From Lophium mytilinum (lineage: Eukaryota), in NCBI GenBank assembly GCA_010093605.1, contig MU004194.1, forward strand, positions 658,323 through 722,322: a stretch of DNA of 64,000 bases, in the 5' to 3' direction. A program made the translations under genes and the position numbers. Below, one piece after another: positions 34,498-47,918 of this stretch; position 1 is the stretch's first letter, and each line of letters starts with the position of its first letter. The notes beneath the pieces are model-generated. The model was not told the origin of the DNA and did not search any database. It was given only the letters and a program-made list of their open reading frames with translations.

Positions 34498-34662
34498 GTT
34501 TGCAAAGAGGGCCTTAGTACAGCCATTATGAACGGCTTCGATGAAGATACTGGGTTGAAGCTCTACTCGACTATGATAGTCATAAGGAATGAAGATATAA
34601 ATTTCCGCGCCTAATTATACAGGTAAGGTCTACAGCTATCGTAGACCCATAGAAAACGCTTG

Positions 34663-35644
34663 CTAAATGTTGTCTGTAGCGACCGTGTTCTCGATCGCCC
34701 ACTCCTTTATCGCTTCGAAATTCCTGCAGACGTGGTCGGTGTTGAAGTCGGGCCAAGGATCGTCGTATTCGGGCAGCATCGCAAAGGTGAAGACTCCGAC
34801 GTCACTTGAACACATCAAGTTCATGCGGAGAATCTCGATGCAATGGTCTAGAAACAGATCAGCAGCTGCTTTACGCCTAGCCTTGTTGAAGTGAAAGAAC
34901 GCCATACCTAGATGCATACGAAGCTTCTCCGGTGGGTCGGAAAGGTCACCACCCTTTGACTCGTAGTGGTCCTTATAGGTGACCTTCCGAAGAAGATTTA
35001 AGCAGTGGAGTTGGTGAAACACTTCCAAACCAATCCGGAAGCCATGTTCTCCAGTACGTGGATCTGTTACGCCCAAGGAATTCATAGGCTTTCCAAGCGC
35101 CTTCATCTGCTCGTGTGATACCATCTGGTCGCCGACTACGCAAAGGATGAGTGCATGGCCGAGTTCGGGGAGGGAGTAAACTCACTGTCGAATGAAAGAC
35201 CATTCCACGCCTCATCTACGTCGTCGCCCATTCCCTGGTACGCAGATGAGACTGCACCCTTCGTTATATTGAAATGGACATTCTCGTATCGAACTGCCTC
35301 CGAAGCCGGGGCTATTTCACTTAATCAGCTTTTCTAACTCCTTGAAGGTGATCTGACGGCTTCTACTTACACCATGCGGAGAACTTTTCAACGAACATTT
35401 CCTCGGTTGGTTGGCCGAACCAGCTGGACACGAAGAACGCCGCTGATATCGAGAAAAGGGCGGCGTGTGTGTACCACATCCATCTAGGTGTCTTCCGGAT
35501 AATGACTGTCCGCTGCTCTGATCCTAACCCATCTTCCAAAAGGGTAGCCGATGAATCATCACTCGACATGCTGATTCTCTTCTCCTCATCGTGGACCACT
35601 TCATAACCCTTGTTCTCGAACCCAGGCTTGCTGGACTTCATCAT
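34663..35644 (-). CDS. DUF3328 / UstYa-like oxidase (4 exons)
   Basis: N-terminal TM. Motifs SPASEAV, VDEAW, VFHQLHCLNLLR, HLDHCIEILRMNLMCSSD and HVCRNFEAIKEWA. Exons 35644-35371, 35311-35186, 35135-34908 and 34847-34663 splice in frame. Confidence 0.93.
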
Positions 35645-37033
35645 GGCTGCGACTGGTCGGTGGACTTGTCAGGTGGAAGAGTAGGAAGAATGGGTGTAGG
35701 AATAGAACGACTGCCGGCAGTAGCCATGGGAGGAAGGGCCGCGGTGGGGTATTATGCCATTCGACAAGCGGCAGGCGTCTATAGCGACGTGGGGCTCGCA
35801 GGTTCCAAGTTATGTTTGATTGGCATTCTGGTTTCACAGGCGTTGGAGATAGCAAAGAGCGACAGGCCGGCAGTGGGACCCGGGCGTATCGAGGATTCCA
35901 TACATCCATCCTACTTACCTCAAACGGTACACCCGCAAGTCCTCTCACTGGTGGCAATAGCCCGCAGCCGGTTCGAGACGTCCAATGTGAGCAATTCCAC
36001 TGTACAAAACCGACCGAAGCACGATCTGATTGGGCCCTCGCCTGCCACTTCCTAAACGCGGGCCATAGTTGACGTTCCAAGCCTGGGACACGAGGAGTCG
36101 CAGAAGGCTAACCAGCACGGCTGCAAATCATGCGGCGAGGCTGCGTCGGTTCGCCATGCCTGGCCTTTGCACAAGACATTCAGGCGCCGGGGCAGTTACA
36201 GAACTCCTAGCGCAGATCACGGCCGTAGTCTTCTTATGCCCTCTCCGGCGGCCTAGTGTTGAGCCTCAGGCGGAGGATGTTGCAGCTTGCCAAGGACGAA
36301 ACCCTTCGGGGAGTATCCCTAGCGCCGATCAGGAGCCCCTGACGCTCCGCGACGCGCTCGGCTAGGCTTCCCGTCCCGCCTCTGCCTGCCAAGCACGCTC
36401 CGCAAGGCGTGAAAAAAAGTGGCACACTCAAGCTCCGCTGGTCAGTTCAACACCGTCTAAGGTGGCCCACAGCGCTATAGGGCTTGCTAGAGCTGATCTT
36501 TTGTAAGCAATAAGAGCATACTGGAGGACCTCAAGCAGTGCTAAATTAGGGTATGCAAGCACAGAAACGCGTCGATGGGAAGCAACAGTATACACGTGCA
36601 TGCGCCCATGTAAAGTGCCACTGTTCCTATGCCCTGCCTGCCCCGCCCCTTAACTCCCGGAATGCTGGGCAAAAGCTTGGCCTCCCGCCCCATACACCAG
36701 CAGCTATACCCGTCATCCACCAGTGTTTGACGGCACGTCACAGACTGCGCTCTTTTCTGCCCTCGCGCATTTACTTGGCGTAGTTTGGCGCCTAAGGCCT
36801 GGTGCTGCGTGCCTTGTATGATCCACATCTCATCGCTACTGGCAATTCCGTGCCTGATTCGGCTGCTTCTTCCTTCACCACCTACAGGCTCCACAACGCC
36901 TGGCGGGAGTTGGAGGCGAGAAGGAGAAGGAGGTAATGAAGGGGCCGGCGCTTTGGGCTGCGCGCAGAATTGCTGATCGGCTAGAAATCACTCACTGATG
37001 GACTTACCGCGGGTGGACCACAGGTCTATCTGA

Positions 37034-37040
37034 TATAAAA
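37034..37040 (+). promoter_or_regulatory. Putative TATA box of the HHK-repeat gene
   Basis: TATAAAA ~190 nt upstream of ATG 37227, followed by a CT-rich tract. Confidence 0.5.
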
Positions 37041-37226
37041 TACCCAGTCTTCTCGGCGCTTCTTCTTTTCGACATCCCATTCATCATCTTCGTCTTCTGT
37101 CTTCAGTGTTCTACTCGGTCCTGGTGTCCTGTATCCATCCGTTCTTTCTTCGTTCAATTCATTCATTTCAAATCTCATATTATCTGTCTTTACTGCTGGC
37201 CAGTATTTACCTATCACTCTTTCATC

Positions 37227-37755
37227 ATGCATTTCACTACCTTCACTCATGCTCTGACCATTGGGCTGCTCGCTGCCTCGCCCCTCGTTGTGGCTCATGA
37301 CAACACTGGTGCTCTGGAGATTGCCAAGCGCTTCGTCGTAAGCTACTATTACTTCTTTGACAACCACTCAATACTAACATCTCCAGGGTGGTTCTGCCAA
37401 CGTTGCCTCCGCTTGGGTGGCCTCCGCCCGCGCCCTAGAAGCACGTGAACCGCACCACAAACAGTCAAAAGGTGGCAACGCAGCCACCGCCGGTGCTGCG
37501 GCTAACGGAACCGCTACCACTGCCACCACTGCTACCACCGGAAAGAAGAACTGCGCCAGAGACCCACATCACAAAAATTCAAAAGCGTGTGCCCGGGACG
37601 TCGAGGAGGTTGAACTGGAGGCCCGCCACCATAAAGGGGGAAATGCTGCCGCCCCAGCAGCCTCAGCTGCACCGGCGACAGCGAGCACTGCTGCTACTGC
37701 GAATACGAAGTGCGCCAGACACCACAAAGGGAACGCTGCGAAAGCCTGTGCTTAG
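37227..37755 (+). CDS. Secreted 159-aa HHK-repeat protein; candidate protease-processed RiPP precursor
   Basis: Exon 1 37227-37337 has the signal peptide and a KR site. Intron GTAAGC..CTAAC..CAG 37338-37386. Exon 2 37387-37755 is in frame and carries four HHK...CA(R) units. Confidence 0.85.
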
Positions 37756-38185
37756 ATCATGACAGGGGAGCATTAAGGAGCTCCCTTGGGCGGTTATGGG
37801 AAGGGCATGAACTGGTTGATTGGTTGATTGGTTGGCAAGTGGGTTGGTGGAAGCTTTAGTTCGCAGCTTTCGGAATTGTATGATATTCGCAGGCGTATAA
37901 AAATTAACGAGAAAAATGACTATCCCCTGATCCGATATTGCAGTGAAGCACTCCTCCTTTGACTGGCAGGTTGACGTCGTCCGAGGTCCTGCGCTGGACA
38001 CCCCGAACTATCCTTGCTAGGCTTTGATCTTGCTCGCTCAACACCACTGAGAGGAGTAGCCCAGCTATTTAATAGCATTAGCCAGTAAGTCAAGGAGCAG
38101 TCTGATTTACACTGCTTGGAAGTTGACATCGTCCCTGAACTTTCAAGATATATGGGGGTACCCAGTGCAATTTTGCTGCAGTGTT

Positions 38186-38449
38186 GACGGCGTCTGAGGT
38201 CCTCTAATGCTCTGAAAATACTCGAATTACGATGTCAAGTCTACGCCTCTCAATTCGTGTAGTGCTCTAAAGCATTCTTGATACCCACTTGATAGCGTCT
38301 GGAGTACCCTGATGCACGAAAAATGATCTACCTAGGATGTCACACTCCATGCCTCGTGATTCGTGTAGTGCTCTAAAGCATTGTAATGTACCCTCTTAAT
38401 AGCGTCAGGAGGGCTCTAATGCACGAAAAATGATCGAGTTACGATGTCA
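38186..38449. repeat. Diverged tandem repeat, ~105-bp period, ~2.5 copies
   Basis: TTCGTGTAGTGCTCTAAAGCATT twice, ATGCACGAAAAATGATC twice, and GATGTCA three times at ~105-bp spacing. Confidence 0.8.
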
Positions 38450-38787
38450 TGTTTTAGTAAGGTTCGTGAGGCCAGAACGATTTCCTAAATGAAGGTACAG
38501 TACTAAAGCATAAGTTTGGGCATACAGATAGGATTTATTACCGCTTAGCTCGAATCTTGTTCACTCGACAACACTGTGAGGGGTGGCCTGGCTACCAGGT
38601 AGCCGGTTGGTCAAGAAGTAGCCCAATGCTCGCCCCATAAGCCTTAACATTGCGTTGGAGTAGCTCTAAGTTCGGCCACTTCGAAATACCATTTCATGAT
38701 TGCTACGTTGGAAGCTAGTTACCACCGTCAGGGGTGCCCCCGCCAGCAAGTAACTAGATTGTTAAAAGGCAGTCTAATTTACAGTGC

Positions 38788-39447
38788 TTGAACCTTGATA
38801 TGCGATTATTTTGTATCGCTTGGTTTGCATATGCTAACGACCTCAGCGATGTCCGGAAGAAGATGATGCGCCGCACGGCTGCCCTTGTCACCTATCACAA
38901 CAATCGTTCAGGTTGTGAACAGGCACAGACGGTTGCTCGATGGGCTGCGGTGAAGGAAGAGATGGAGCGCAGTGGCACCCTGTGGTGCGACTACTGTCAC
39001 AAAACTGACCATACGGCGGCCAATTACTTCGGTACTAGGCCGGAGCTTCTACAGGGATTTAAAGATCGTCAGCCGGCTCAGGCTGTTGGCCAGGAGCGCG
39101 AAGCTGTAGACCATCGACTACGCGATGCTAATAACGCCATTTCCATAACGATGCCCGCTACAACTATCATCAGCCTGGTCCGGAGCGCCGTCCGATCAAT
39201 CAAGACCGAGACAGAGACAGGCGTTCATACACAGACCGAGTCCGAGACAGAGACCACTATGCGGATCGAGACCGAGACCGAGACTACTACGCGGATCGAA
39301 ACCGAGACCGAGCCTACTACACGGATCGATCCCGACGTCACCGACATCATCCGTACTAGGAGTGTTTGTGAATGGACGGGTTATGTAACCTACCCAGCAT
39401 CAGTGCGAGCATGTTCTTCTTCTTCAATCATGCGGGTACTTATATAG
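38788..39447 (+). pseudogene. Degenerate zinc-knuckle protein with 30-bp repeat tail (probably frameshifted)
   Basis: CDYCHKTDHTAANY matches C-x2-C-x4-H-x4-C with the last Cys replaced by Tyr. The tandem 30-bp repeats read as an RD-rich sequence ending RHHPY* in another frame. Confidence 0.45.
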
Positions 39448-45875: not shown

Positions 45876-47918
45876 CTACGACCTCGGCGCGTCAATCAGC
45901 ATCGACATCGGCTCGGAACGCCTCTTCAGGCCCGAGTCGCCCATGTCGAAGGCCGTGATCGAGTTCTCGTACGTGTCCCAGCTCTTGCAGCCGTTCTTGA
46001 AGTCGTCGAGGCTGCCAATGGAGCCTAGAATCTCAGACTCCCGTTCTAAGAACTGCAGACCAAGACCTGCGGAGATGTGGAACGGAATGTGGCAATGCAT
46101 GAGCCACGCGCCAGGGTTATCAGACTCAAAGGCGAGAATGAGGTAGCCGTTGGCGGGCAGTGTGGCGGTGTCACGGCGAATGGGGTTGGTGAGGGAGAGG
46201 GTGGACACATCACCGCCCCACTGGCCGGAACCTTGGCCGAGAACGTAGAAGTCGTGACCGTGGAGATGGATGGCTGGGAAAAGTATTAGTATTGGGGTTC
46301 ATGCATATTAGGATGATGGTTACTTACGATGTGGCAGAGGTGGGTCGTCAGCGGCAGCTTGGATCATCCAGTATTGCCAGCCAGCGCCAACCGTATAAAC
46401 ATTGTCTGTGGCAGGGAAGCTGGTGTTGCCGTCAATCACGTACTGCAGAGTCGGCTTTTCCCAGTCAATGAGGATGGCAGTCGAGTTGATGAGCCATTGC
46501 ACAAGATTGTTCTTGGCGGCAGTTTGACTGAAAGTGAGTCCTAGCTTCTTGGGCAGCTGGGACGGGACGTTGGTCTTCACATATGGCACGACGTTGGTCT
46601 CGTCGCCGCAACCCGTAGGTAGAGTGATACCGGAGGAGTTCGGGTTGCCAGCGGGAGCACCGACGTAGGAAAAGATGCTCCTGATGTTAGCGGCGTTGGC
46701 GTTGGGGCCGTCGCATTGGCCTCCACCCGTGCCAACGCGGAGCCAGTAGTTGGCGACAGTGTTGTTGGCATTGATAATGACGTCGTATCGTTGTCCTGTT
46801 AAGAGCGGATTAGCGTCGGTTCGGGAAATGGAGTGGGTCACGGGTGTTTCACGGGATCACGCGATGAGGTGGGGGTATTGGGATGGGGTCTGTGCGCAAG
46901 GATTGACTTACCAACGCCAAGCACGATCGAAGTCGTGGTGTAGGGCACGATCGGAACGAAATCTGCAGCGATAACCGTGAAGGGATGGCTGTCGAGAGAG
47001 ACGTGGAGGAATTGGTTGATTCCGGTGTTCACAATGCGCAGAAGATGCTTCTTCCCGGGTGTCAGGGTGGTCTTGGCGTAGGCGCCTCCCGAAGAGGAGG
47101 TCATAGACCCGTTTACGAGGATGTTATCAGAAGTCGGTGGGCCACCAGCGTGCAGTGCGGCCGCATTGACAGTGAAAGCGGGTGTGTGGAACCAATCAGT
47201 GATTGGCAATGGTCCAAGGTCGATATCGTAATTGGCGGTAGCAGGTCCGTTGATCTGGATGGTGCCGACAATTCCTTCCGCGTATTGGACAGAGTAATGA
47301 GAGTGATACCAGGAAGTGCCGTATTGCGTAGCTTGGAATGTGTATGTCTTCGTCTGTCCCGGAGCAATCGGGCATTCAGTGAGACCGTTCGTGCCATCCA
47401 TCTGGTTGCTGTGCAGCTGACGCAGACCGTGCCAATGGATGCTAGTGCCGTTGTTCTCGAGTTGATTGATGACAGTGATGCTTAGAGTGTCGCCCCAGTC
47501 TGCAGTGATAACAGGCCCAGGGTACTGGTTGTTAATAAGCATCATGGGCCTCCCGAAGCCATCGGGAGCGAAGTTTGTGACATTGGTGATGGTTAGGGTG
47601 TACTATCCAGCGTTAGAACCACTGATCCCAAAATCTGAAGCATGGTAGCCTTACTGTTCGCGTAACTCCTGTGGTGGGCCACTTCAAGTCCATGTCGGTA
47701 GACACACTGTAGCCATTGGACCAGCAGCTTCGTGTCCGGGCGGCGTTCTTGCAGGTCGAGTCGCGAAGATGAATATCAGAAACCTCGCTGAAGTGAGAAC
47801 TGTCACGCCCTGAGATGCCGTCCCTTTTCCATGGGACCTCGACTCTGGGGAGAGCGGCGACGAGGAGGGAGGGTGCAAGCAAGGCCAATAGGCCTGCTTG
47901 TTTAACGATCGCAAGCAT
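45876..47918 (-). CDS. Secreted laccase / multicopper oxidase (AA1), multi-exon
   Basis: Signal peptide. Copper motifs HWHG, WYHSH, HP|IHLHGH and HCHIPFHISAGL. C-terminal DSGL followed by a short extension. Confidence 0.95.

Follow-up and report, generated by a model that had tools for sequence, protein, structure and literature searches.

The window analysed here is a 64,000-nt stretch of the Lophium mytilinum genome (assembly GCA_010093605.1, contig MU004194.1, positions 658,323 to 722,322 of the forward strand), and contains two divergently oriented genes within its positions 34,663 to 37,755. One encodes an oxidase of the UstYa/DUF3328 family, and the other a small secreted repeat protein, referred to below as the precursor, whose repeated units start with His-His. 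Both genes are real, spliced and transcribed, and the pair is conserved, in divergent orientation, across distant fungi. The features of the locus are as follows, where X1 and X2 are RNA sequencing runs.

34663..35644, minus strand: UstYa/DUF3328 coding region, four exons, 270 amino acids, stop codon at 34665-34663.
35644-35371, 35311-35186, 35135-34908 and 34847-34663, minus strand: UstYa exons, in the sole GT-AG model with an open frame.
34848-34907, 35136-35185 and 35312-35370, minus strand: UstYa introns, all three absent from the RNA contigs of X1 and X2.
35016-35002, minus strand: HQLHC motif.
34914-34908 plus 34847-34840, minus strand: HLDHC motif, interrupted by intron 3.
34609..36279, minus strand: spliced RNA contig over the UstYa gene (run X1, record 2; 1,502 nt, 0 differing letters).
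35645..37226, no strand: divergent intergenic region, 1,582 nt from ATG to ATG.
37019..37908, plus strand: spliced RNA contig over the precursor gene (run X1, record 4; 841 nt, 0 differing letters).
37227-37337, plus strand: precursor exon 1, encoding a signal-peptide-like hydrophobic N-terminus, followed by a single Lys-Arg and by the two residues that open the pro-region.
37338-37386, plus strand: precursor intron, 49 nt, GT..AG, skipped in the X1 RNA contig.
37387-37755, plus strand: precursor exon 2, 122 amino acids, comprising the pro-region, four cores and one acidic spacer; stop codon at 37753-37755.

A preliminary description of this stretch had proposed a four-exon DUF3328 gene with the motifs HQLHC and HLDHC, and the unique GT-AG model bears this out. 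Its product matches the Pfam family UstYa (PF11807) with an E-value of 1.8e-37 (129.8 bits against a cut-off of 25, based on exons 3-4 with intron 3 read through), and the His and Cys positions of the two HxxHC motifs are invariant or nearly so in an alignment of 32 UstYa orthologues. The hydropathy peak (Kyte-Doolittle, 19 residues) is 1.18, at residues 34-52 of the 245-residue form of the protein, or approximately 59-77 of the 270-residue model. The shorter form is the public NCBI annotation (P0127), which takes an internal Met as its start. We favour the ATG at 35644, because the 25 extra N-terminal residues (35570-35644) are kept in the orthologues, including a conserved Tyr and an acidic patch, and because the RNA contig extends upstream. 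Relatives of this enzyme are numerous (222 matches at E ≤1e-10 among 260 candidates, with identities of about 40-55%), and are found in Dothideomycetes, Sordariomycetes, Leotiomycetes and lichen fungi.

The precursor is a protein of 159 residues encoded by two exons; it agrees with the spliced sequence written out in the preliminary description, and is identical to the L. mytilinum NCBI protein BU16DRAFT_584294. It has its hydropathy maximum at residues 5-23 and no match in Pfam, and it contains 43 Ala, 11 His, 4 Cys and, as had been noted earlier, no Tyr (0 counted). The conserved pro-region at the start of exon 2 ends in Leu-Glu-Ala-Arg, and is followed by the four cores, each of which starts with His-His-Lys. 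The corresponding R...HHK sites start at 37444, 37558, 37624 and 37717, and two of the four His-His-Lys units are preceded by Glu-Pro or Asp-Pro. The cores are approximately 35, 9, 30 and 11 residues long (counted after removal of the C-terminal Arg), are rich in Ala and Thr, and all end in Cys-Ala. They are flanked by Ala-Arg, the only Lys-Arg of the precursor being the one behind the signal peptide, and the spacer between cores is a short acidic stretch without Trp. In a six-frame translation of the window, the motif R(XP)0-2X?HH[KTR] occurs 9 times, with 4 of the occurrences inside precursor exon 2.

The X1 contigs skip exactly the four predicted introns, so all four are supported; these include the precursor intron at 37338-37386, for which RNA support had been proposed as a check. 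In run X2, a soil metatranscriptome, a close relative of the window UstYa gene is represented by spliced transcripts (21 of 433 and 2 of 390 differing letters in its two contigs). The precursor is not covered in X2, a gap that carries no weight as evidence. Contig depths are 14.9 and 6.9, values that do not rank expression. The head-to-head arrangement at a distance of about 1.58 kb was correctly described, and at most about 740 nt of the intergenic region (36280-37018) lie outside both main transcript contigs. The UstYa contig implies an unusually long leader of some 635 nt (35645-36279) ahead of the UstYa start codon, with the qualification that a transcript contig cannot fix the true 5' end. 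Between the two contigs, at 36332-36585, there is a spike in X1 depth (236-394) that comes from contigs matching over only about 30 nt and running on at either end into unrelated sequence; the probable cause is a short shared element, not expression of the locus.

Relatives of the precursor are harder to find than those of the enzyme. A word-based search with precursor exon 2 returns only the query itself (1 match among 1,054 candidates). Taken with the missing Pfam match and the high Ala content (43/159), this result is what would be expected of a lineage-specific, low-complexity orphan that adjoins the UstYa gene by chance, or of a mis-annotation. We consider such an explanation extremely improbable, and the spliced RNA contig already speaks against it. 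An exhaustive profile-free search yields five proteins at E ≤0.001, one of which (P0122, from Mytilinidion resinicola; 317 residues, E 9e-94) has the same architecture as the Lophium precursor, but ten His-His units. The Mytilinidion precursor (KAF2816114) and its UstYa protein (KAF2816113) have consecutive accessions and lie on one 3.07-Mb contig. The Lophium and Mytilinidion UstYa proteins are 98% identical over 244 columns, whereas the two precursors differ two-fold in length; near-identical enzymes with such a length difference are typical of repeat precursors. Two long matches, P0123 (1,281 residues) and P0125 (2,097 residues), align with residues 11-38 only, and were set aside as low-complexity matches. 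A Lophium paralogue on another contig (P0124, KAF2494632.1; 199 residues) is degenerate. It has the signal peptide and pro-region of the precursor, followed by a Gly/Ala/Gln-rich middle and a single unit, in which His-Lys-Lys replaces His-His-Lys.

For a wider comparison, a UstYa profile was built from 32 aligned relatives and used to collect 79 metagenome loci, which were oriented with UstYa on the plus strand. The loci are not de-duplicated, and it is apparent that L004/L005, L018/L019 and L074/L075 each represent a single sequence. A locus was counted as positive if at least two R(XP)0-2X?HH[KTR] motifs fall in one stop-to-stop frame. By this definition, the upstream opposite-strand quadrant is positive in 23 of the 79 loci, and each of the other three quadrants in none. 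It had been suggested that HHK-type repeat proteins be sought beside DUF3328 genes in other genomes, and here repeats of the HH[KTR] type are indeed found, both in these 23 loci and in the consecutive Mytilinidion accessions. Upstream sequence of 2,400 nt or more is available for 32 loci, of which 20 are positive by the motif rule, and five more (L004, L005, L041, L049 and L051) on inspection, their units being single or split by frame changes. BLASTP of the precursor (P0001) against the L012 frame gives an E-value of 1e-07. The recurrence of motif, strand and position, with no occurrence in the control quadrants, together with the spliced RNA contig and the Mytilinidion pair, refutes the orphan explanation, and the L012 match also speaks against it. 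BLASTP of P0122 against the L018 frame finds nothing significant (E 1.1), and the similarity between subfamilies is at the level of the motif only. A profile-search E-value of 8e-17 for P0001 was discounted, as P0001 is itself part of the profile.

UstYa identities across the pair-bearing loci range from 32 to 63%. In none of the 79 loci is there a relative of any other frame of at least 90 residues from the 24-48 kb part of the window, and therefore the conserved unit is the pair and not a larger cluster. Three neighbours considered as possible cluster members, a multicopper oxidase (45.8-47.6 kb), a P450 (25-27 kb) and a transporter (28-30 kb), were rejected, with relatives in 0 of the 79 loci. 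The first of these is the following feature.

45876-47602, minus strand: laccase-like multicopper oxidase gene, 8 kb from the pair.

Because the divergent pairing is conserved far beyond the Lophium genome, the UstYa enzyme and the His-His repeat precursor are likely to be functionally linked, and the functional pairing put forward in the preliminary description is to this extent well supported. The window holds a single UstYa gene, and 14 loci carry a further frame family beside the main one. These are second, more distant UstYa-family genes located downstream, on the plus strand in L004, L005, L014, L033, L034, L047 and L073, and on the minus strand in L041, L043, L044, L046, L051, L067 and L068; of four frames from these two second-gene families that were compared with Pfam, three match UstYa.

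The preliminary description presented the system as new. It is not: the family matches types #15 and #6 of the Kex2-processed repeat proteins (KEPs), and these were linked to DUF3328 already in 2020 (PMC7329392). In that work, Umemura classified 7,878 KEPs, and types #6 (G-3) and #15 (G-8) have a di-histidine motif accompanied by Pro, with DUF3328 genes near 57 of 64 and 45 of 49 members, respectively (PMC7329392). The likeness consists of a secreted repeat protein with His-His units accompanied by Pro, beside a DUF3328 gene. The KEP detection rule of Kex2 dibasic sites between repeats does not describe the Lophium precursor, with its Ala-Arg flanks. The Lophium pair can be added, as a somewhat atypical case, to a family that was catalogued in 2020 and is chemically uncharacterised; it is atypical because no Lys-Arg flanks the cores, and because these are Ala/Thr-rich with Cys at their ends.

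The correspondence with the catalogue can be followed through accessions. Table S2 of PMC7329392 gives accessions without sequences, and supplement 3 the sequences of type S-1 only. The UstYa orthologues TLD13617, EMD85981, EHA54043 and EMD62336 are consecutive with the type-15 entries TLD13616, EMD85980, EHA54042 and EMD62335, which belong to the genomes of Pyricularia grisea, P. oryzae, Bipolaris maydis and B. sorokiniana, and which are all flagged as having DUF3328 nearby. Of the precursor-profile matches that were checked against Table S2, five of six are type 6 with a DUF3328 flag. Two guessed Grosmannia neighbours are not in this table, and Lophium and Mytilinidion have 0 occurrences each. 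The X-Pro/Ala trimming rule, the single-Arg site with an aliphatic P4 and the co-diversification of enzyme and precursor, which are described below, do not appear in the available passages of PMC7329392. Likewise, the di-histidine family is not mentioned in the passages found of papers on lichens, Venturia and Trichoderma, or of that of Le Marquer. For MGG_08830 and MGG_08831 there is no literature match, and one unrelated paper mentions MGG_08832. No core string or characterised product occurs in the searchable literature, outside of which lie about 1.7 million PMC articles and the subscription journals.

The named relatives that we inspected come from Didymella, Talaromyces, Botrytis, Trichoderma, Fonsecaea, Pestalotiopsis and one lichen fungus. 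Most of them share an N-terminal plan, consisting of a similar signal peptide, a dibasic site, the sequence [YF]-V-G-[GS] and a short pro-region that ends ...Glu-Ala-Arg immediately ahead of the first His-His, and most have no Cys. The type-6 members P0200 and P0193, and the profile match P0216 (type not checked), follow the plan of the Lophium precursor. In our reading, the frames of the relatives seem to open just past a splice-acceptor-like position, before the G-[GS]-[GS] that starts exon 2. The inter-core spacers of P0193, P0200, P0216, P0221 and P0192 are conserved and Trp-rich, and are of two types, namely paired Phe-Gly-[Pro/Ser]-Trp units and a His-Trp-Ala-Asp-Leu-His unit; these could be second products or recognition elements.

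The UstYa tree has 59 rows, representing the 54 loci with at least 150 matched residues and five named proteins, the other 25 loci being excluded for short cover. All ten loci with His-His-Thr precursors fall within one clade (99% support), while those with His-His-Lys lie elsewhere, so that the Lys/Thr trait requires one change on the tree. This distribution suggests that enzyme and precursor type diversify together, as fits a substrate-enzyme pair, and is weak evidence of co-evolution because relatives share labels. The window UstYa belongs to a group of 24 rows (support 86) that also holds the UstYa proteins of B. maydis and B. sorokiniana, both of which have type-15 KEPs as neighbours, and the P. 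grisea UstYa is in another group. L009, L010, L045, L056 and L022 form a subclade with 100% support, whose members show no His-His repeat frame in the 6 kb upstream of UstYa, the sequence of L022 reaching just 1,383 nt in that direction; this subclade may have lost its partner, or may use another.

The head-to-head adjacency persists while all other neighbours change, and it does so at UstYa identities of 32-63%. This persistence, and the tracking of the enzyme tree by precursor type, would be hard to explain without a direct functional link. For this reason, we think it unlikely that the repeat protein simply yields unmodified linear cationic His-His peptides (antimicrobial or signalling peptides, for example) and that UstYa is co-regulated or acts elsewhere. 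Such an arrangement would fit the Lys/Ala-rich cores, which have none of the known UstYa target residues, and the UstYa subclade without a partner. In addition, KEPs are for the most part regarded as unmodified, and a DUF3328 gene is missing from the vicinity of 78% of them (PMC7329392).

The earlier division of the precursor into cores and spacers fits a family-wide pattern, which is based on 141 His-His sites from the precursors of 18 non-duplicate loci, Lophium (P0001) and Mytilinidion (P0122). An Arg occurs no more than 12 residues upstream of His-His in 138 of the 141 sites. The linker from this Arg to His-His is 0, 2, 4 or 6 residues long in 42, 71, 19 and 6 cases, respectively, and never has an odd length, which the site-selection pattern would have admitted. 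In 137 of the 138 sites the linker is made up purely of X-Pro/Ala dipeptides, the types being Glu-Pro (44), Asp-Pro (12), Ser-Pro (8), Asp-Pro-Glu-Ala (6) and others. Position P4 relative to this Arg is taken by Leu, Val, Ile or Met in 124/138. The cores had been described as flanked by Kex2-type sites, and this part fails, as the site is mostly a single Arg, with Lys or Arg at P2 in only 9/138. The residue following His-His is Lys in 87, Thr in 45 and Arg in 5 cases (n=138). Hence, from the conserved His-His-Lys and Cys of the preliminary description, His-His is retained, while Lys alternates with Thr and Cys is absent from most relatives.

Yeast alpha-factor is matured by Kex2, Ste13 and Kex1 through a cut after a basic residue, stepwise removal of X-Ala/X-Pro dipeptides, and removal of the C-terminal basic residue. 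Even-numbered X-Pro/Ala linkers are the mark of the Ste13-type dipeptidyl aminopeptidase that acts in this maturation. The His-His family is alike in its X-Pro/Ala dipeptide linkers, but differs in that its cut sites are mostly single Arg. Given these linkers, the mature peptides would begin exactly at His-His, and the rule of [Leu/Val/Ile]-x-x-Arg, X-Pro/Ala dipeptides and His-His gives exact peptide masses to look for.

Trimming of this kind would leave a free N-terminal X-His motif, which, as in Gly-His-Lys, is a strong Cu(II) ligand, and DUF3328 enzymes need copper. The His-His peptides might thus handle copper, either as secreted Cu(II) chelators or as donors that load the binuclear site of UstYa. 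We regard this as improbable, since characterised DUF3328 enzymes, as far as they are covered by the available sources, work without such a partner, the high copy number within each precursor points to a product secreted in bulk and not to a chaperone, and the 79 loci lack the multicopper oxidase (45.8-47.6 kb) beside the pair. The idea is compatible with modification of the peptides by UstYa, as a modified peptide could still bind copper.

The best-known systems with a similar layout are the dikaritins (ustiloxin, phomopsin and asperipin-2a), which likewise have a signal-peptide repeat precursor beside UstYa and processing in the secretory pathway (PMC7329392). Dikaritin cores have 4-6 residues, are flanked by Lys-Arg and carry a Tyr ether cross-link, and ustiloxin and phomopsin also need a tyrosinase. 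In contrast, the Lophium precursor has no Tyr, single-Arg sites, and cores of 9-35 residues that start with His-His, and no tyrosinase or other tailoring gene is conserved with the Lophium-type pair in the 79 loci.

For the enzyme, the closest biochemical reference is CctR, the DUF3328 hydroxylase of cyclochlorotine, which is an O2-dependent, single-pass membrane dimer with binuclear copper and is located in the Golgi, endosomes and vacuoles (PMC12435403). The two proteins share the Pfam family, the HxxHC...HxxHC arrangement and four conserved Cys, and the single hydrophobic stretch of the window UstYa has the same relative position as the single N-terminal membrane helix of CctR, as judged by the hydropathy profile only. 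Unlike the window enzyme, CctR has no repeat-protein partner, and its substrate is a non-ribosomal cyclic peptide. The approximately 50% identity of the window UstYa is to proteins with propagated 'cyclochlorotine biosynthesis protein O' names, not to CctR itself.

On balance, we consider it probable that the window pair represents a two-gene module, widespread among fungi, in which UstYa modifies His-His peptides; the module spans at least five classes of Ascomycota, including major crop pathogens and industrial fungi. The proteases, the cellular location, the role of the peptide as UstYa substrate and the chemistry are the parts of this model that we infer. Here, UstYa would be a membrane-anchored oxidase with its catalytic domain in the lumen of the secretory pathway. 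The polyprotein would enter this pathway and be cut behind the signal peptide after Lys-Arg, and also after single Arg residues with an aliphatic P4. A Ste13-type dipeptidyl aminopeptidase would then trim in X-Pro/X-Ala steps, and a carboxypeptidase would probably take off the C-terminal Arg, to give several peptides starting with His-His (four for Lophium, each ending in Cys-Ala). UstYa would oxidise these before secretion, most probably at or beside the invariant His-His-[Lys/Thr] N-terminus.

Several observations weigh against this model. The Lophium cores are without the Tyr that is used in all characterised dikaritins, and without flanking Lys-Arg, and two of them are low-complexity Ala/Thr/Gly stretches of some 30-35 residues, which is unusual for the core of a RiPP, a peptide synthesized by the ribosome and then modified post-translationally. 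Seven of the 32 loci with sufficient upstream sequence have no His-His partner (L009, L010 and L045, which are identical, and L029, L038, L054 and L056), and the partnerless subclade means that some near relatives of this UstYa function with no precursor of the kind. In the published catalogue, there is no DUF3328 within 15 genes for 4/49 members of type #15 and 7/64 of type #6 (PMC7329392). Several His-His-Thr loci have a second UstYa gene without a counterpart in the Lophium window. Finally, the searchable literature holds no mass-spectrometric or genetic data for any family member.

To our knowledge, all known peptide substrates of DUF3328 enzymes use Tyr or are non-ribosomal, and a family with an exposed N-terminal His-His as its only invariant core residues would widen the substrate range of these enzymes. 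We offer tentatively, and with some doubt, the further proposal that the family is a new RiPP class, present in dozens of genera, in which a dicopper UstYa acts on an N-terminal His pair instead of Tyr. If true, the genera would include Botrytis, Pyricularia, Bipolaris, Trichoderma and Talaromyces, as well as lichen fungi. One possible product, by analogy with the ring between Tyr1 and residue 3 of ustiloxin, would be an imidazole-to-side-chain cross-link from His1 to residue 3 (Lys or Thr); another possibility is a different His-centred oxidation, whose secreted product would bind copper or be redox-active. That DUF3328 enzymes are binuclear copper oxidases is a recent finding, known for CctR (PMC12435403).

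Two minor features lie outside the pair. At 38230-38450, just downstream of the precursor, there are two copies of a sequence of about 60-70 nt, spaced approximately 110 nt apart, and at 38758-39447 there is a frame that has no match in Pfam and shows Thr-Glu repeats and a Cys-His pattern resembling a zinc knuckle; together these may be the remnant of a mobile element. In L013, L022, L058, L074 and L075, a fatty-acid-hydroxylase/sterol-desaturase-like gene that is absent from the window lies downstream of UstYa on the plus strand, and the downstream frame of L074 matches PF04116 with an E-value of 4e-25.

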